Below, piece after piece: positions 1-37,273 of a stretch of 47,960 nucleotides of DNA. This DNA is from Methanosarcinales archaeon (lineage in GTDB: Archaea; Halobacteriota; Methanosarcinia; Methanosarcinales; Methanogasteraceae), in contig DAOVGE010000017.1 in NCBI GenBank assembly GCA_030672605.1, positions 1 to 47,960 on the forward strand. The letters run 5' to 3'. Position 1 is the stretch's first letter; each line of letters opens with the position of its first letter. Both the position numbers and the translations under genes were made by a program. The notes beneath the pieces were generated by a model that was not told where the DNA came from, made no database searches, and saw nothing but the letters and a program-made list of their open reading frames with translations.

Positions 1-75
1 AATGGACGAATGGCACGAATTTATTCAGGTTTAGCATTCGTGAAATTCGTTTATTCGTGCCATTCGTGATCTCCA
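1..75 (-). repeat. Family-2 palindromic repeat (CACGAAT/ATTCGTG heptamer arrays), cut by the window edge
   Basis: CACGAAT x2, loop, then ATTCGT(G) x4 at 9-10 bp spacing. It is a near-identical reverse complement of 2811-2898. Confidence 0.8.
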
Positions 76-190
76 CGTCCCCAACACATCGCGGACATAA
101 TTTATCTACGAGATGTTTCAACGCGAATTACCAAAGAGCCACTTTTTCGTTTCGGAAGTGTTTGGCTCTCTGGCATCCGGAAACGCACAG

Positions 191-2093: not shown

Positions 2094-2750
2094 ATGCTCA
2101 CAATCACAGTTGTCACCAGAGGTAAGTATGGGGAGCGTGCGATTCTGACGATTGAGGAGAAGACTGACTTTGTGGTTACCCGGATCTCTGTTCCGGAAGC
2201 TCTGCCGGAGTTTATCGAAGATACAAAACCATACACAAAGAATACAAGCATCTCCTCCGGCGCCCCGCCCGATCTTGTGATCATATTCGCGCTTCACCCC
2301 GACCTTACGCCCGCATTCGCAGCCTGCGCGGCAGAATCGGGCGCGGGTGCGGTAATCGTATCCGGAAGCGACACAGCCGAACTGCGAAAGATCGCTGAGC
2401 GGTACCGGATGCACATCCACGCAGACGAGATATGCTGCTCGCTTCTGCCATGCGGGGATCGGGTAATCGATGAATTCGCAAGCGTTCTCGGAAGACCTCG
2501 ATTCAGGGTGGTGGTTACGGATGGGGTCATCCGGGATGTGCGCGTCATCAGAGGATCGCCGTGCGGCGCAAGCTGGTGGGCAGCCTCACAACTGATCGGA
2601 ACTCCGGTTGCGGATGCACCGGGAAGAGCCGGGCTCCTCGTGCAGCAATACCCGTGTCGCGCCGTGCGCGGTACGCGTGGCGGGATTCACAGGTCAGCAG
2701 AACTTCACAAAAAGGCAATCGAGGAGGCACTGGCAGATGTGGCTCTTTGA
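2094..2750 (+). CDS. DUF166-like conserved archaeal Cys-containing protein
   Basis: 218-aa ORF divergent from atwA. It carries the conserved-looking blocks HPD...CCSLLPCG...GRPRF...RGSPCG...YPC recalled from DUF166 proteins. The family call is from memory only. Confidence 0.55.
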   Translation: MLTITVVTRGKYGERAILTIEEKTDFVVTRISVPEALPEFIEDTKPYTKNTSISSGAPPDLVIIFALHPDLTPAFAACAAESGAGAVIVSGSDTAELRKIAERYRMHIHADEICCSLLPCGDRVIDEFASVLGRPRFRVVVTDGVIRDVRVIRGSPCGASWWAASQLIGTPVADAPGRAGLLVQQYPCRAVRGTRGGIHRSAELHKKAIEEALADVAL

Positions 2751-2810
2751 CAATTCGCGTATGCCAGGCATCTCGTAGATGAATCTTGCCTGTGTAGTAT
2801 TAAGTGCGTA

Positions 2811-2898
2811 GGGATCACGAATTTCACGAATAAACGAATTTCACGAATGCTAAACCGTAATAAATTCGTGTCATTCGTCCATTCGTTAAATTCGCGAT
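2811..2898 (+). repeat. Family-2 palindromic repeat, complete copy
   Basis: gggatCACGAATttCACGAATaaACGAATttCACGAATg, loop, ATTCGTGtcATTCGTCcATTCGTtaaATTCGCG. Inverted relative to the copy at 1-75. Confidence 0.85.
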
Positions 2899-3108
2899 AA
2901 AAACTGTTGGAAATAGACCAAATTCTTAATAAACTCCTCGAAACCAGAGTAGAGCGAGTTTTGGTAAATAACCGATGTGACTGGTCGTTTGAACACCTTC
3001 ACGCGAGATATCAGAGAGCCGCAGATGTGGGGGCATGATGTGTCTGATATGTCTGATGTGTCGAATAGGTCAGCAGCAGAACAAGTGCTCTCAGAAATCC
3101 AGAAGCGA

Positions 3109-3713: not shown

Positions 3714-4754
3714 ATGTCATGCGTTGTTGGAATTGATCCCGGCACAAAGAGCTTCGATCTCCTCGGGCTGGACTGCGATTGTGACGAGATCGTCCTTGAC
3801 GTAGCGATACCCACGAAACAAATCGCAGCAGACCCTGAATCGGTGACCGATGAGCTGGAGCGGCTTGACCCGGATCTCATAGTCGGACCCTCCGGGTACG
3901 GGATACCTGTCAAGAAAATCTCAGATATAACGCCCATGGACATTTTTCTGATGTCGCTTGTCTCAGAGGGTGATAAAAAATCGATACTCGGAATGCGCGG
4001 GTTAATCGAGACGCTCAAGAAACACAATCTTCCAGTCTATTTCATCCCGGGGGTCATACACCTTCCAACGGTTCCATCCTATCGAAAGATCAACAGAATT
4101 GACATGGGCACCCCTGACAAGCTCTGCTCATGTGCGCTCGCAGTTCGGGATCAGGCAACAAGGCGCAACATCGATTATGACCAGACGTCGCTTGTATTGC
4201 TGGAGATTGGTTTTGCGCACACCGCTGCAATCGCTGTTGATTCGGGGCGGGTTGTGGACGGCATCGGCGGGAGCAGTGGTGGAATCGGCTTCCTCTCGAT
4301 GGGTGCGATGGACTCTGAACTCGCATACATGCTCCGCGGGTTTCCCAAAGAGTTTGTAACAAGCAGGGGTGCACGAACGCTTGCCGGAAGCAAGATTGCG
4401 CCGGAGGAACTTGTGCTGCACGATTATGCGTGGCGTGCATTCGCAGAGGGTGCAGTCAAGAATGTTTGCGCACTCATAGCAACACTCGCACCGGAAGAGG
4501 TGCTGCTCTCTGGCAGATTGTCAAAGATTCCTGAGATTAAGGCGGACTTGACCGAACGACTGGAGCTGATTGCGCCTGTTCGGTTGGTGAATGGGTTAAA
4601 CGGCGTAAGGATCGCAAAGGAATCGGCACAGGGCGCTGCGTTGATCGCAAGTGGGCTTGCACATGGGCGCTACGAGAGCCTCGTAGAGGCGATGAAGATC
4701 ACTGAAGCGCGTGGCACTGTCCTCGATTATGCGAATCTGGATACTCAGCAGTAG
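3714..4754 (+). CDS. DUF1464-like ASKHA-fold (sugar kinase/Hsp70/actin superfamily) protein
   Basis: 346-aa ORF. The N-terminal VVGIDPGTKSFDL phosphate-1-type motif and a later GIGGSSGGIGF glycine-rich motif fit the ASKHA fold. The family name is from memory. Confidence 0.55.
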   Translation: MSCVVGIDPGTKSFDLLGLDCDCDEIVLDVAIPTKQIAADPESVTDELERLDPDLIVGPSGYGIPVKKISDITPMDIFLMSLVSEGDKKSILGMRGLIETLKKHNLPVYFIPGVIHLPTVPSYRKINRIDMGTPDKLCSCALAVRDQATRRNIDYDQTSLVLLEIGFAHTAAIAVDSGRVVDGIGGSSGGIGFLSMGAMDSELAYMLRGFPKEFVTSRGARTLAGSKIAPEELVLHDYAWRAFAEGAVKNVCALIATLAPEEVLLSGRLSKIPEIKADLTERLELIAPVRLVNGLNGVRIAKESAQGAALIASGLAHGRYESLVEAMKITEARGTVLDYANLDTQQ

Positions 4755-7915: not shown

Positions 7916-7990
7916 ATACTGCGCAGTAACTACTCAAGTATGTTGATTGGTCTACCGATTGCGATTCTATGCTTTCTGGCAAGAAAAATA

Positions 7991-8053
7991 ACCGCGGAGG
8001 GTAACAGAGGAACGCGGGAGAGCTGTAGCATCCTCCGCGCACTTTGCGGTTAA
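7991..8053. repeat. Family-5 palindromic repeat (CGCGGAGG / CAGAGG motif arms)
   Basis: accgcggagggtaacagaggaacgcgggag ... tcctccgcgcactttgcggttaa. Related copies lie at 11043-11152, 36690-36753 and 36799-36873. Confidence 0.6.
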
Positions 8054-8365
8054 ATTCCCGTATGGCTCATGTTGTGTTCCGGGTCAAGCAGTGTCGGTAT
8101 AGCGAGGTCGCGTGATACTGTTTTAGGTACCCATGTAGTTACACTGTGCAATACCAGAAATCGGTCTCAATTTTTTACGGGCGGGGCATGGGAACTCGTT
8201 GAAGAGACGCAGCCCCGGCGCAATGTCGAACAGGAAGTCGCAAAGGTAAAATACTGTCACATACATAATTGATGATGCGGGGGATATGACTTGGATAGTA
8301 TAAACAGACAAATTGCAACGCCTGTAGAACTATGGCACTCACAGGGATGCGGATCACCAACAGTG

Positions 8366-9233: not shown

Positions 9234-9307
9234 TCGTAGAATTTACGAATTATTGTTCTTTCGGAGGAATGGTATCATCGGAACGCGTGGAATCGTATGC
9301 GTGAAAC

Positions 9308-9521
9308 GGCACAATCGAAAATCCCAGTGAAATGCACCCGGAGACTTTTGTTCTTTGTGCCATCGCGTCTTTGCGTCTTTGCGTTATTGTTTTCTAATTT
9401 AACGCAATGGCGCAAGGGCGCAGAGACGCAAAGAGTGTTGCCAATCTCAATCTTCGCGTCTTTTGCGTTGTTGCACATCCAACTGACCATTACGGAAATC
9501 ACTGGATTTCCAGACAGTGCC
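9308..9521 (+). mobile_element. MITE family 1b (family-1 core, different termini)
   Basis: Perfect 9-bp direct duplication GCGTGAAAC at 9299-9307 and 9522-9530. The roughly 25-bp imperfect terminal inverted repeats (TIRs) are ggcacaatcgaaaatcccagtgaaat / ggaaatcactggatttccagacagtgcc. The internal core is gcgtctttgcg...ttaacgca...cgcaaag. Confidence 0.75.
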
Positions 9522-10530: not shown

Positions 10531-11042
10531 TTATAATATCCATCCCCCGTCCCCTCCACCCCACAGAGACCCCGGACTTCCAGTCCACGCGTGGAATGGG
10601 GGGGGTCGTTCGCGTCATAAAAGAATAAAATTTATATAATATACTTAGTTTCATTGAATTGTAAAAATTGTCTAAACGTATCTTTAGCACTATATAAACC
10701 CTGCATCAAACCTCAACATCCGGAAATTTATCACCATCAGCCATGCTAAAAACCACGACCAGCGTCCGTATTTCGCTATTATAAAGTATTGCTTTCTCTC
10801 CAACTTTGTCGGCGCTACACGCGAGATTGATAAAACGAAACCGCGATGTAGAGGCGGTTACATGTTTTCTTCGTGGCGAAGAGGATCAAGAATGAGTATT
10901 TGTAGTGTCAAAGATACGTCTAAAATTAAGTTGATGAGACAACAATCGGCTCTTCGCTATTCCGTGTGGGTAGTCTGAAACCAAGGTGACCCAACCGGGA
11001 GGAATCATGGTGATGAAATCATGTATTATTCTTTATAGATAA

Positions 11043-11152
11043 TTAACCACAGAGGGCACAGAGGAACGCAGAGTTTTTTTTATTGACTATTACTCGCAAA
11101 TCCCATTTTAAAATAGGTTACATCTCTCTGTGACTCTCTGTGTCCTCTGTAG
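11043..11152. repeat. Family-5 palindromic repeat
   Basis: ttaacCACAGAGggCACAGAGgaACGCAGAG, AT-rich loop, then ctctctgtgactctctgtgtcctctgtag. The motif period is 9 bp. Confidence 0.65.
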
Positions 11153-11402
11153 TTTTATTCTCCATGTTTTATTCCGGGATAGCTCTTCTGCACCGATGCC
11201 CCATTTAGCAGAATGGGTGCTCGTGTTACCCATACAAAACAGCGAAGAACCCAACAATCCCACTTGTAGCATTCGCCCATCCACGAAATTCGTATTATAT
11301 ACTTTGTTTAAAATCAGAGAGCAGTCGAGCACGAATGTCTCTCCTGCTAATGGATAACACAATTATCATCCAATGACCCCAATCTTCGATTTCACCGTCC
11401 AA

Positions 11403-20164: not shown

Positions 20165-20202
20165 GGGAGAGGGTGCTGCAGCAGAGGATACTTGAGAATT
20201 GC

Positions 20203-20368
20203 TGATTCTGATGGATTCTGTGGTTTCCAACCTTTGCGCCCTTGCGCCCTCGCGTCTTTGCGTTTCTCTGATTTAACGCAGAGACGCAAAGACGCAGGAG
20301 TGGCGCCCGCGATTGCTGCAACACGAGGGTGGGCTACTGCTATCGACCACAGAAAACGGCAGAACCAG
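20203..20368 (+). mobile_element. MITE family 1, copy A
   Basis: Perfect 9-bp TSD GAGAATTGC (20194-20202 and 20369-20377). TIRs are tgattctgatggattctgtggtttcc / gaccacagaaaacggcagaaccag. Hairpin core is gcgtctttgcgt...acgcaaagacgc. Confidence 0.85.
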
Positions 20369-20836: not shown

Positions 20837-21012
20837 CTGGTTCTGACGTTTTCTGTGGTCGCTAACGGTAGCTCCCTCGCGTATGCAAAAAAACGCGGGC
20901 GCATCGCCCCCAACTTTGCGCCTTTGTGACCTTGCGTTAGATCAGATGAACGCAAAGACGCGATGACGCAAGGGCGCAAAGATTGGAAACCACAGAATCC
21001 ATCAGAATCAGG
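20837..21012 (-). mobile_element. MITE family 1, copy B (inverted)
   Basis: ctggttctgacgttttctgtggtc ... ggaaaccacagaatccatcagaatca. Very similar to copy E. The flanking GAAAAAC-containing duplication is imperfect. Confidence 0.8.
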
Positions 21013-25232: not shown

Positions 25233-25832
25233 ATGGACGCGGACTTACTCGACGAAAAATTGAGTAAAGCAGTCGAAAGGATCGATTCATTGGACGAATC
25301 CGAGAAAGTCAAATTTGTAATCCAGTATGGTTCGTCGGTGGATAGTACGATGAGGGATGGCTCAGATATCGATCTGGCAATCTATTACGATTGCAAAGAC
25401 GATAGTGAACCGTCCCGATACAGATTTGAAGTGATCTACAATCTTTCTGATGATGTTTACGACATTCAGATCTTTCAACAGCGCCCCCTGTACGTGAGAA
25501 TAGAAGTTCTAAAAGGGAATGTGGTCTGCTGCAGAGATCGAAACTTTCTGATTCTGATGGATTCTGTGGTTTCCAATCTTTGCGCCATTGCGTCATCGCG
25601 TCTTTGCGTTCTCGTTCGCCAGTTTAACGCAAAGGTGCAAAGGCGCAGAGACGCAAAGGTAGGGGCGGGATGCCCGCGATTTTCCGCATACGCGAGGGGG
25701 TTCCCACATCGACCACAGAAAACGTCAGAACCAGGAAACTTTCTGTACGATGTAGCGTGGCAGACGATAAAAGAATTTAATGGGTTCAAACACCGATACT
25801 ACGATTATATCGGAGAGAGGCGCATCGTATGA
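25233..25832 (+). CDS. Minimal nucleotidyltransferase (MNT/antitoxin-type) carrying an in-frame MITE insertion
   Basis: QYGSSVDSTMRDGSDIDLAIYY is a GS-x(n)-DxD nucleotidyltransferase motif. Codons 25549-25743 derive from MITE-1 copy C plus its TSD. The frame stays open to 25832. Confidence 0.65.
   Translation: MDADLLDEKLSKAVERIDSLDESEKVKFVIQYGSSVDSTMRDGSDIDLAIYYDCKDDSEPSRYRFEVIYNLSDDVYDIQIFQQRPLYVRIEVLKGNVVCCRDRNFLILMDSVVSNLCAIASSRLCVLVRQFNAKVQRRRDAKVGAGCPRFSAYARGFPHRPQKTSEPGNFLYDVAWQTIKEFNGFKHRYYDYIGERRIV
25549..25734 (+). mobile_element. MITE family 1, copy C (inside a CDS)
   Basis: Perfect 9-bp TSD GAAACTTTC at 25540-25548 and 25735-25743. The termini tgattctgatgg.../...cagaaccag are the same as in copy A. 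Confidence 0.85.
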
Positions 25833-28863: not shown

Positions 28864-28906
28864 TTAAGGGCGGGGCGGGGCGCCTGAAAGACTTCATAAC
28901 CTCGAA

Positions 28907-28962
28907 CATGCTCAATACCCAGGGTATGAACCACAAGAGTACACAGATTTCCACAAGATTTC
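28907..28962 (+). repeat. Family-3 repeat, left half (interrupted)
   Basis: catgctcaata...ccacaagagtacacagatttccacaagatttc matches the left half of the intact copies at 30229 and 33781. Confidence 0.6.
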
Positions 28963-29325
28963 GAGACTTTTCATTATTTTCTGGAGACTGGTTGAATTAT
29001 GGCATCTATTTACAATTTCGGCATTCGTGCGATTCGTAAATTCGTGTCATTCGTGTTAAAATCACAACTAAGGGCTTGCCAAAAAATAACCTGTTAAAAT
29101 TCGTGTCATTCGTCCATTCGTGAAATTCGTGATAAAATCGGCAGAAGGGATCACGAATGGCACGAATAAACGAATCGCACGAATGTCAGGGATGTGGAGT
29201 GCCATCAGATAACTTTGCTACTTTATTTTTCGGCGAGCACTAAACGAATGACACAAATCCAATCGTTCTGAAAACGCACTCACAATTCTTTCAATTCCTC
29301 CTGACCTGAAAAATTAACAAGTCAT
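28963..29325. repeat. Composite insert: family-6 ends enclosing family-2 ATTCGTG/CACGAAT arrays
   Basis: It starts gagacttttcattattttctgg and ends ctgaaaaattaacaagtcat. Internally it has three arrays of 4 heptamers (29032-29065, 29106-29140, 29154-29187). AAGATTTC is duplicated at both junctions. Confidence 0.55.
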
Positions 29326-29397
29326 AAGATTTCTGTGTTAATCTTGTGTAATCTCGTGGTTTTGTATGCGGATATCAACACAATATTGAGTAAGTAC
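29326..29397 (+). repeat. Family-3 repeat, right half
   Basis: aagatttctgtgttaatcttgtgtaatctcgtggttttgtatgcggatatcaacacaatattgagtaagtac matches the right half of 30229-30372 and 33781-33911. Confidence 0.7.
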
Positions 29398-29451
29398 ATA
29401 GCCTCTGTTTCCAGCAATCCTTTATCCCCCAAAAGAGCCCCATTTCTCACC

Positions 29452-30207
29452 ATGCACAGAGTAATCGACGAGATACTGGAGTTGACACGGCGCAGAGTCG
29501 CTGACATCCGCACTACAGATGTGCCTGAGAAAATCGAGCGCAGGGACGTGATTCAACTGATACGATCTCGCAAGCAAGAAAACAAGATCCCTGTCATTTC
29601 CGAGGTGAAACCCGGCTCACCAACGATTGCGAAGCGCGACATAACCCCCGACGATGCAGCAAGAATTGCGCGGGAGATGGAGGCAGCCGGTGCAGTGGCG
29701 ATCTCTGTCTTGACAGAGCCGGATTTCTTCTACGGGAGCCTGGAAAATCTCTCTGCAGTTCGAAGGTCGGTTACAATACCGGTATTGAGAAAAGACTTCA
29801 TAATCGATTACAAACAGATATATGAAACCGAAAGTGATCTTATATTGCTGATCGCCGGCATACTCGGGGAGGATCTTTGCAGGTTTGTCGATCTGTCTCT
29901 TGCGCGTGGGCTGGAGCCACTCGTGGAAGTGCATAACGAAACCGAGCTTGTGGATGCGCTCGATACGAAGACAAGGATCATCGGCATCAACAATCGGGAT
30001 CTTTCGACGCTCACAATCGACCTATCGACAACAGAACGTATGATTCCGATGATTCCGGACGACAGGATCGTAATCGGCGAGAGCGGGGTCAGAAACTCGG
30101 CAGATGCGGCTCGTGTGATCAACGCAGGAGCGGATGCGATTCTTGTCGGGACTGCGATCATGGACGCCCCGTTCGAGCGGACCAAAGAGCTGGTTGGCGC
30201 GCTTTAG
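29452..30207 (+). CDS. trpC: Indole-3-glycerol-phosphate synthase
   Basis: IPVISEVKPGSPT, ISVLTEPDFFYGS, VLRKDFI, EVHNETEL and IGINNRDL are the TrpC signature blocks. The start is taken at ATG 29452 because the upstream part of ORF 29335 is repeat-derived. Confidence 0.85.
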   Translation: MHRVIDEILELTRRRVADIRTTDVPEKIERRDVIQLIRSRKQENKIPVISEVKPGSPTIAKRDITPDDAARIAREMEAAGAVAISVLTEPDFFYGSLENLSAVRRSVTIPVLRKDFIIDYKQIYETESDLILLIAGILGEDLCRFVDLSLARGLEPLVEVHNETELVDALDTKTRIIGINNRDLSTLTIDLSTTERMIPMIPDDRIVIGESGVRNSADAARVINAGADAILVGTAIMDAPFERTKELVGAL

Positions 30208-30228
30208 TCTGGCGGGCGTCGTATTTGT

Positions 30229-30372
30229 GCATGCGCAATAACTTGTGATAGGAGCCACAAGATTGCACAGTCTGCGAAGCAGCGGCGTAGCCATCTTCAC
30301 AAGATTTCTGTGTTAATCTTGCGTAATCCCGTGGTTTTATACGCGGATATCCGCACAATATTGAGTAAGTAC
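30229..30372 (+). repeat. Family-3 repeat, full copy
   Basis: catgcgcaataacttgtg ... cacaagatttctgtgttaatcttgcg ... cacaatattgagtaagtac, with an internal extra segment tctgcgaagcagcggcgtagccatctt. Confidence 0.75.
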
Positions 30373-33571: not shown

Positions 33572-33761
33572 CTGGTTCTGTTGTTTTCTGTGGTCGATGG
33601 CAGTAGCCATTACGTGTGTAGAAATCGCGGGCGTCACTCCTTCGTCTCTGCGTCTCTGCGACTTTGCGTTAAATCAGAGAAACGCAAAGACGCGAGGGCG
33701 CGAAGAATGAAAAATCACTTATTCCGGCATCTTTTGAAAACCACAGAATCCGTTAGAATCA
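33572..33761 (-). mobile_element. MITE family 1, copy D (inverted, with internal extra segment)
   Basis: ctggttctgttgttttctgtggtc ... aaaaccacagaatccgttagaatca. Flanks are AAAAAATCG / GAAAAATCG (8 of 9 identical). Confidence 0.8.
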
Positions 33762-33780
33762 GAAAAATCGCCCCGGGGTA

Positions 33781-33911
33781 CATGCTCAATAACTTGTTAT
33801 AGGAACCACGAGATTACACAGATTTGCACAAGATTTCTGTGTTAATCTTGTGTAATCTCGTGAAATCTCGTGGTTTTATATGTGAATATCCACACAATAT
33901 TGGGTAAGTAC
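33781..33911 (+). repeat. Family-3 repeat, full copy
   Basis: catgctcaataacttgttatagg, then CACGAGATTaCACAGATTTgCACAAGATTT, then ctgtgttaatcttgtgtaatctcgtg ... cacaatattgggtaagtac. Confidence 0.75.
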
Positions 33912-34039
33912 ACCTATAGATAGTGTCAACCCAACACTGGCGTTATATCGATCACACATCAGCACAAGCCCATGCGAATGCCAATTTTACAGGCAGGGAC
34001 TGCTCCCGTGTTCGGATTCGCTGACATGCGCAGATGGAC

Positions 34040-36536: not shown

Positions 36537-36689
36537 TTGACATTCACTAACACGAAACGCAATCTATAGAAATCAGGTATGCGTCGGAGGGGGTGTCCGG
36601 GAGTCCGGCTTGTTGACGCCGGACGCATGGTGATTTTGGGAGTCGGGGGGATTTTGTGGAGACTTTTATTATCTTCGGGAATGGGTTCG

Positions 36690-36753
36690 GAAAACCACAT
36701 AGGACGCGGGGAACGCAGCAACTCTCTGTGCCCTCCGCGTCCTCTGTGGTTAA
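36690..36753. repeat. Family-5 palindromic repeat
   Basis: aaccacataggacgcggggaacgcag / ctctctgtgccctccgcgtcctctgtggtt inverted arms. Confidence 0.65.
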
Positions 36754-36798
36754 TCTTCTTTACCATAACCAGACACTGTCTGAAAATCAAGTGATTTG

Positions 36799-36873
36799 TC
36801 ACCGCGGAGGTTCGCGGAGGTTCGAGATCGTTTTCAACCCTCTGCGTGGCTATGCGCACTCTGCGGTGGAATC
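36799..36873. repeat. Family-5-like palindromic repeat
   Basis: caccgcggaggttcgcggaggttcgag ... ctctgcgtggctatgcgcactctgcggtg. Confidence 0.55.
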
Positions 36874-36948
36874 TACTGGTATGGCGATTTCACTGGAACA
36901 ATCGACCGTGCCCCATAACCCAAGTCACCCGGAAGAGATTAAAAATCC

Positions 36949-37131
36949 TGATTCTGATGGATTCTGTGGTTTCCAATCTTTGCGCCCTTGCGTCATCGCG
37001 TCTTTGCGTTCATCTGATCTAACGCAAGGTCGCAAAGGTATGAGAGACGCAAAGTTGAGAGAGATGCGCCCGCGTTTTTTTGCATACGCGAGGGAGCTAC
37101 CGTTAGCGACCACAGAAAACGTCAGAACCAG
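36949..37131 (+). mobile_element. MITE family 1, copy E
   Basis: tgattctgatggattctgtggtttcc ... gaccacagaaaacgtcagaaccag. Flanks are TAAAAATCC / TAAAAAGCC (8 of 9 identical). Confidence 0.85.
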
Positions 37132-37170
37132 TAAAAAGCCACATGTTGTGATGGTCGCTATCATGCCAGA

Positions 37171-37273
37171 CATTCGTGCAATTCGTACCATTCGTACCAT
37201 TCGTGTTCTAATGCTGCTGATTTTAAACAAAATATATAACGCAAATTTCACGAATGCCACGAATACCACGAAT
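37171..37273. repeat. Family-2 palindromic repeat directly upstream of kinase 1
   Basis: cATTCGTGcaATTCGTAccATTCGTAccATTCGTG, a loop containing aaaatatataac, then ttCACGAATgcCACGAATacCACGAAT. Confidence 0.8.

Follow-up and report, generated by a model that had tools for sequence, protein, structure and literature searches.

What are the inverted arms of short, regularly spaced motifs at positions 29023–29200 of this DNA, and why do different repeat families in the same stretch follow one building plan? The window analysed is the entire contig C30 (47,960 nucleotides) of a MAG of 1.64 Mb in 216 contigs that is 69% complete and represents an ANME-2-type member of the Methanosarcinales. ANME-2 archaea are uncultured and drive the anaerobic oxidation of methane, and no published description of ANME-2 mobile DNA was found. 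Pfam matches to an archaellum protein, DUF2298 and PMT_2 support this placement, and the cyanobacterial repeats STRR and HIP1 were rejected once the genes proved to be archaeal.

Phased arrays with a fixed number of units

Arrays with a period of 7–11 bp and at least 2.8 copies were collected genome-wide. The 449 TRF rows reduce to 436 non-overlapping arrays, and three second-order Markov simulations of equal size were used as the control, yielding 10–16 arrays each compared with ~440 in the MAG. The motif families are NCGCAAAG with a period of 8, CACGAATNN with a period of 9 in the pattern 9-8-9, CACAGAGNN with spacings of 9–10 and CACRAGATTT with spacings of 10–11. The genome-wide next-neighbour spacing of the exact motifs is sharp at 9 bp for CACGAAT (array pattern 9-8-9), 8 bp for CGCAAAG, 9 or 10 bp for CACAGAG and 10 or 11 bp for CACRAGAT. 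The periodicity remarked on in the first-pass annotation holds across the genome. The positions given there for families 1 (CGCAAAG), 5 (CACAGAG) and 3 (CACRAGAT) are all exact, arrays of period 8, 9 and 10 were returned by TRF at every cited site, and the arms were recovered by an inverted-repeat search. One building plan is common to the different repeat families, as that annotation had proposed. Its unit consensus, (C/A)AC..A(G/T), is loose and leaves CGCAAAG outside; a better description of the units is CRCR with a purine-rich tail after it.

Each family keeps to a set number of units per arm. There are four units in 105 of 117 CACGAAT arrays, three in 60 of 61 CACAGAG arrays and three in all 30 CACRAGAT arrays, which identifies the arrays as copies of defined elements rather than slippage-prone microsatellites. 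Slippage-type tandem repeats, for example those like cyanobacterial STRR, were excluded as a class on the same invariance.

The arrays are the centres of MITEs

When the window was compared by BLAST with the genome it belongs to, each array fell inside a longer conserved repeat of roughly 90–300 bp, with nested composites of up to ~500 bp. The layout is a terminal inverted repeat, a linker, the array, a loop, the inverted array, a second linker and the other terminal inverted repeat; each class has imperfect terminal inverted repeats of 14–26 bp. BLAST copy-number steps and target duplications resolve the focal block, 28896–29405, into three MITEs, one inside another:

28896–28903 and 29398–29405: target duplication of the outer MITE, ATAACCTC / ATAGCCTC.
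28904–29397, unstranded: outer MITE of the CACRAGAT family (family 3), with imperfect terminal repeats GAACATGCTCAATA / GTACTTACTCAATA and a hairpin centre split by insertion.
28955–28962 and 29326–29333: perfect 8-bp target duplication of the second-level MITE, AAGATTTC.
28963–29325, unstranded: second-level MITE of 363 bp with termini GAGACTTTTCATTATT / ATGACTTGTTAATTTT, located exactly in the hairpin centre of the outer element.
29023–29055, plus strand: array of four ATTCGTG units starting at 29023, 29032, 29040 and 29049 (spacing 9, 8, 9), the left arm of the second-level element's own core.
~29071–29240, unstranded: third-level "type D" MITE with termini GGGCTTGCCAAAAAATAA / GCTCGCCGAAAAATAA, inserted in the right arm of the second-level element; its ends are approximate and come from BLAST copy-number steps and copies with the same flanks.
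29099–29131, plus strand: array of ATTCGTG, ATTCGTC, ATTCGTG and ATTCGTG (9-8-9), the left arm of the type D core.
29152–29184, plus strand: array of CACGAAT, CACGAAT, AACGAAT and CACGAAT (9-8-9), the right arm of the type D core.

The first-pass annotation had placed ATTCGT at 29032, 29041, 29049 and 29058. The first and third of these positions are right, the second is off by one and the fourth is wrong, and the unit at 29023 had been missed. The right arm of the second-level core is disrupted and persists as the remnants CACAAC at 29063 and AACGAATGACACAAAT at ~29243–29258; the type D right arm is also 91% complementary to 29022–29055. An intact family-3 centre for comparison with the split outer element lies at 33827–33850.

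Two relatives differ at this site. L013, with 93% identical flanks, has an empty site in which 12 bp replace window positions 28896–29408, and L001 (94% identical) carries a different element with a CGCAAAG core at the same spot. An older family-3 copy downstream of trpC is common to all three genomes, and each lineage added a different nested element. The nesting and the differences from L013 and L001 show that the elements are mobile, recently active and prone to insert into each other. The listed trpC open reading frame has a GTG start at 29335, within the MITE; relatives align only from residue 27–40 on, and there is an ATG at 29453. Translation of trpC probably starts downstream of the MITE, which would place the nested block directly in the trpC promoter region.

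The other elements of the window are as follows:

1–148, minus strand: type A copy truncated by the contig start.
2741–3020, plus strand: type A CACGAAT MITE of 280 bp; perfect duplication GCAGATGT; ISL3-type termini GGCTCTTTGACAATTC / GGCTCTCTGATATCTC; arrays at 2816–2848 and 2864–2896.
7926–8142, unstranded: 217-bp MITE with a CGCGGAG/ACAGAGG core; duplication ACTGCGCA / ACTGTGCA.
9307–9521, plus strand: MITE with a CGCAAAG core and different termini (GGCAC.. / ..GTGCC); 9-bp duplication GCGTGAAAC.
10948–11251, plus strand: CACAGAG-family MITE of 304 bp; perfect duplication CAACAATC; ISL3-type termini GGCTCTTCGCTATT; arrays at 11048–11073 and 11124–11150.
20202–20368, plus strand: CGCAAAG-family (family 1) MITE; duplication GAGAATTG; termini CTGATTCTGATGG / CTGGTTCTGCCG; arrays at 20234–20262 and 20276–20296.
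20838–21011, 25548–25734, ~33573–33762 and 36948–37131: further family-1 copies.
30227–30372: second family-3 copy, common to relatives L013 and L001.
33776–33914, plus strand: intact family-3 MITE; arrays at 33807–33836 and 33838–33875.
36659–37273, unstranded: nest of four elements upstream of a kinase gene.
36659–36770: first element of this nest, with a CGCGGGG-type core.
36771–36912: second element of this nest, with a CGCGGAGGTT core and duplication CCATAACC.
36948–37131 and 37171–37273: third element of this nest (family 1) and fourth (a low-copy CACGAAT hairpin).

Target duplications were scored for 59 complete copies of family 1. In 43 of them the two 8-bp flanks differ at one position at most, compared with no copy having fewer than four mismatches when the flanks were shifted by 30 bp as the control. 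Perfect 8-bp duplications surround 2741–3020, 10948–11251, 20202–20368, 25548–25734, 28963–29325 and 36771–36912, and six further classes in the window have perfect or near-perfect 8-bp duplications. A single terminal class (GGCAC..GTGCC), also present in L001 at 3769–3998 with the duplication GCCTCTGGC, duplicates 9 bp, and all others duplicate 8 bp; the same cores must therefore travel in elements that depend on two or more kinds of transposase. Genome-wide, the insertion targets of family 1 are A/T-rich and often palindromic (e.g., 20194–20201); GAAATTTC recurs among them, and the duplicated sequence of the second-level MITE is a target inside a family-3 hairpin. The preference for such targets makes MITE hairpin centres insertion hot spots. 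The family-1 terminal repeats (20202–20224 and 20346–20368) are themselves two phased CAGAA units with a period of 10 (CACAGAAAAC, GTCAGAACCA) and resemble the CACAGAG core.

The copy number in the 69%-complete MAG is ~64 for complete family-1 elements and 18 for flank-ascertained type A elements. Repeats of at least five copies make up 7.3% of the assembly, and an array is present in 264 of 505 repeat segments. Long open reading frames contain only 17% of repeat bases (coverage ≥10), compared with 82% of the genome, and many contigs, the window included, begin or end within such a repeat. The repeats break contigs and sit beside or inside genes, and so affect assembly, annotation and probably gene regulation. 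The elements thus combine terminal inverted repeats, a target duplication of fixed length, short non-coding dispersed copies and presence/absence polymorphism at orthologous sites, and for type A and the CACAGAG family ISL3 copies in sister genomes provide an autonomous relative with the same termini. These results identify the arrays as the centres of several families of MITEs, small non-autonomous elements that crowd the genome.

Parent insertion sequences and exchangeable cores

The ISL3 family has an 8-bp target duplication and GGCTCTT termini. The type A termini (GGCTCTTTGGTAATTCG) are the termini of 1.48–1.50-kb ISL3 insertion sequences in sister genomes (L090 823–2318, L083 and L071) that encode a full transposase with Zn ribbon, HTH and DDE_Tnp_ISL3 domains; in L090 the transposase lies at 1039–2277. 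The CACAGAG MITE has ~65 bp on the left and ~25 bp on the right in common with a 1304-bp ISL3 insertion sequence (L067, L073 and L087). Both families are descended from ISL3 parents. No arrays were found in these parents by inspection of the ends and a motif scan, with TRF on L067. For the remaining terminal classes, namely family 1, family 3 and two others, no autonomous partners were found among the IS4/IS5, IS1595 and ISL3 loci of the archaeon's family; IS4/IS5 (PF01609) and IS1595 (PF12762) elements were rejected as parents, with no termini in common and no arrays. A search for the family-1 partner through terminal-repeat pairs in five relatives returned only MITE-sized elements. The only ISL3 transposase gene of the MAG itself is a fragment at a contig end (G000:C82:46–381), and complete insertion sequences have probably been lost from this assembly.

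The arrays were also considered as transposon ends and rejected as such: inverted pairs 0.3–6 kb apart in the archaeon's own genome have nothing but host genes between them, for example PurM, a V-ATPase subunit and UbiA. A related proposal is that each hairpin is a minimal element, or the abutted end-to-end junction of an unseen insertion sequence with the arrays as terminal repeats, which would make the cores nested tiny MITEs. The CAGAA units 10 bp apart in the family-1 termini, the AACCAC with which several cores begin, like the inner end of those termini, and the occurrence of the core module in many backbones are in its favour. However, the cores are not visibly flanked by target duplications, and no inverted array pair 0.5–4 kb apart surrounds a transposase in the own genome, seven relatives or 80 metagenome loci. 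This proposal ranks low and is very unlikely. A 1.5-kb inverted array pair in genome G018 encloses an AlbA_2/Schlafen gene and not a transposase. At this locus (L030, G018:C10, 640–2222) two inverted type D MITEs flank a 394-aa AlbA_2/Schlafen plus HATPase_c_4 gene in a composite-transposon-like arrangement. The ~40 identical type D arrays at contig ends of the same genome indicate that a burst took place very recently.

Cores and termini vary independently of each other. Elements with the GAGACTTTTCATT termini have CACAGAG, CGCAAAG, CACGAAT or CAGATTAA cores or lack a core, the CACGAAT module occurs in at least four backbones, and the class with the 9-bp duplication has CGCAAAG, CACGAAT and CGCGGAG cores. 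The cores are thus exchangeable modules and not inherited transposase sites left by internal deletion. Some small elements bear a single arm. The units grade by single substitutions through CGCAAAG, CGCAGAG, CGCGAAG, CGCGGAG and CACAGAG, and because the families grade into one another the common plan reflects common descent at least in part.

The four-unit 9-8-9 CACGAAT array was found in 25 of 26 sampled genomes of the archaeon's family at 1 to ~100 copies each. Outside the family it is sporadic in two other families and occurs in at least 120 metagenome stretches, and the reversed control pattern was never found in the genome and metagenome search. As with CACGAAT, the CGCAAAG array has its main occurrence in the family, and no CACGAAT array was found in viral contigs. 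Among the 80 metagenome loci, 96 of 103 CACGAAT arrays have four units, and ~60 of the 103 have no detected partner within 200 bp. A genome of a different family in the same order, G086, carries the CACGAAT array at 41 copies, and the contig names place one or more of the metagenome hits (among L093–L172) outside marine seeps, for example L099 from groundwater. These two occurrences suggest horizontal spread of the elements.

The gradation and exchange of cores bear on the possibility that the arrays are neutral relics, in which an ancestral core arose by unit duplication (slippage) and palindromisation, then diversified and spread by nested insertion and recombination, so that the plan reflects common descent and hitch-hiking and not function. 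The single-substitution steps between motif families fit this account, as do the conservation of type A cores, which is no better than that of their flanks, the tolerance of broken and single arms and the frequency of nesting into other MITEs. Against it, arrays from different genera and families have the same number of units in the same 9-8-9 pattern, in contrast to repeats prone to slippage; the 7-mers are retained from one subfamily to the next even where the spacers have reached saturation; and every high-copy family has a core. Neutral relics are a possible but doubtful explanation.

Folding of the cores and comparison with known systems

The 7-mers of opposite arms are 93% complementary and the spacers match at 9 of 140 positions, in copies that come from few masters. 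Single-stranded cores fold as chains of 7-bp helices with small internal loops (z of -3.5 to -10 versus shuffles). The first-pass annotation had held that the plan exceeds what a simple hairpin needs, and this is upheld by the recurrence of the same 7-mer in every helical block of an arm between non-complementary spacers. The identical blocks could be a relic of unit duplication kept by selection against stem mismatches. The same annotation had placed the motifs on one face of the helix, which is correct for the 10–11-bp family only. At 10.5 bp/turn the CACGAAT units at 0, 9, 17 and 26 bp lie at 0, 309, 223 and 171 degrees and the CGCAAAG units at 0, 8, 16 and 24 bp lie at 0, 274, 189 and 103 degrees, and the two largest families, with their periods of 9 and 8 bp, wind around B-DNA.

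We favour the reading that the cores are DNA-level fold-back modules, with a probability of about 0.55. The elements are moved in trans by transposases encoded elsewhere, of the ISL3 type for two families, and the cores are modules of probably common descent, exchanged between MITE backbones through nesting and recombination and not derived from the ends of the parent insertion sequences. The core would act on DNA, with both strands equivalent. The 7-bp blocks of opposite arms may pair to form a segmented hairpin or cruciform, or alternatively the block array may hold a structure-specific or bending host protein; either route would fold the 150–300-bp element so that both ends meet in the transposase complex. 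This folding role is proposed with moderate confidence from sequence comparison. The mismatched spacers weaken a cruciform and do not match selection for a stable hairpin. Further points against fold-back are the numerous metagenomic arrays without a partner, the single-arm elements, the burst-forming master of G086, which has uncompensated G-to-A changes in two blocks, and the stem changes: no compensated double changes were found against 18 single-arm changes, a count from young copies with biased ascertainment.

The strength of the folds and the position of the intergenic elements next to gene ends would also suit hairpins that act as RNA, whether they end transcription, stabilise transcripts or are processed into small RNAs. 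Yet as RNA one strand folds as well as the other (Wilcoxon p 0.06–0.11), and family-1 orientation to neighbouring genes is random (49 sense, 41 antisense), with elements on the 5' and 3' sides alike. An excess of G.T over A.C in stems, considered as an RNA signature, proved to be an artefact of the folding method and disappeared once both strands were treated alike. The hairpins are not followed by a T-run, and no match to known RNA families (Rfam) or tRNA-derived elements was found. The lack of strand or gene-orientation bias disfavours an RNA role, which ranks low and is highly improbable.

The first-pass annotation had interpreted the arrays as sites for a single oligomerising DNA-binding protein. 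In this reading a sequence-specific protein, either a host factor or the domain of a transposase acting in trans, would bind tandem sites with a 7–8-bp core per site. In subfamilies, genera and metagenomes alike the units of an arm keep one 7-mer although the spacers diverge freely, and a hairpin alone needs no identical blocks. Ribbon-helix-helix operators have periods of 7–9 bp without a match to the helical face, as in the 8-bp MetJ boxes and the 7-bp omega heptads, and provide a precedent for such spacing. The genome encodes MC1 at G000:C113:8243–8515. This bending chromatin protein selects CACAC after an A-tract in SELEX and prefers four-way junctions (PMC6776556). However, the MC1 site is 15 bp compared with 8–10 bp here, the arrays have no linked gene for a candidate protein, the motifs of the cores have drifted (CGCAAAG, CGCAGAG, CGCGAAG, CGCGGAG), and elements with the same termini have different core motifs, which cannot all be read by one transposase. 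The transposase version in particular is weakened by the array-free ISL3 parents of two families, the several cores of one terminal class and the lack, in the 80 metagenome loci, of inverted array pairs 0.5–4 kb apart, the spacing expected around a transposase gene. Sequence-specific binding sites would be a somewhat unlikely answer.

A further, quite unlikely idea is that the cores are a portable cis-acting transposition enhancer in which a host architectural protein would read the inverted array through its shape and a short motif. MC1 would be the candidate, since it bends DNA sharply and has the junction preference noted above; it is put forward as a lead and not as evidence. Binding would fold elements shorter than the persistence length of DNA, so that any co-resident transposase could synapse their ends. 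If true, such an enhancer would explain why unrelated MITE backbones of the lineage all acquired a core.

The elements and their cores have partial counterparts among known systems. The MITEs described here resemble prokaryotic MITEs derived from insertion sequences, namely Correia of Neisseria, RUP of Streptococcus and SM of Sulfolobus, in being short and non-coding with the termini of autonomous insertion sequences, and in their target duplications, high copy number, intergenic location and insertion polymorphism between close relatives. They differ in that families with different termini carry an interchangeable central hairpin whose arms are 3–4 phased copies of a 7–8-bp motif. To our knowledge, no such core has been described for any prokaryotic MITE. 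A literature search returned nothing relevant on MITEs in ANME or Methanosarcinales, nor on such a MITE core. The elements are like ISL3 insertion sequences in their termini starting with GGCTCTT (compared with the sister-genome ISL3 copies) and 8-bp duplications, but retain only ~25–65 bp of the insertion sequence ends and carry arrays absent from the insertion sequences. REP/BIME elements are likewise abundant intergenic palindromes in mosaics, and bind host proteins (IHF, gyrase). In contrast to the target duplications found here, REPs have none and depend on a Y1 transposase (REP/BIME-RAYT); no Y1_Tnp (PF01797) was found in the own 69%-complete MAG.

Foldback (FB) transposons of Drosophila and related elements have inverted arms of tandem short repeats, and the whole element can fold back. 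The inverted arms of short tandem repeats are common to both systems, but FB arms are hundreds of bp and terminal whereas the arrays here are ~33 bp and internal, in another domain of life and with another transposase. Subterminal motifs bound by transposases in Ac/Ds, En/Spm, Emigrant/Lemi1 and IS607 ends are also short, direct and inverted, and located in a non-autonomous element. In the Emigrant MITE with Lemi1 the subterminal repeated motifs are bound by the transposase (PMC1636448), and the repeated motifs of IS607 ends are bound likewise (PMC6188088). In those systems the autonomous element has the same motifs, whereas the ISL3 parents here lack them and the motifs vary among elements with the same termini. 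Motif arrays in MITEs have their nearest precedents in eukaryotes, namely Emigrant with Lemi1 (PMC1636448) and Foldback. The MITE load of this lineage is heavy, at least 7% of the assembly, and an internal module swapped between MITEs of different termini and absent from the parent insertion sequence is unusual. The exchanged cores suggest that something beyond transposase recognition sites contributes to MITE success and, if this is true, they would be a concrete handle on the mobilisation of very short elements in archaea.
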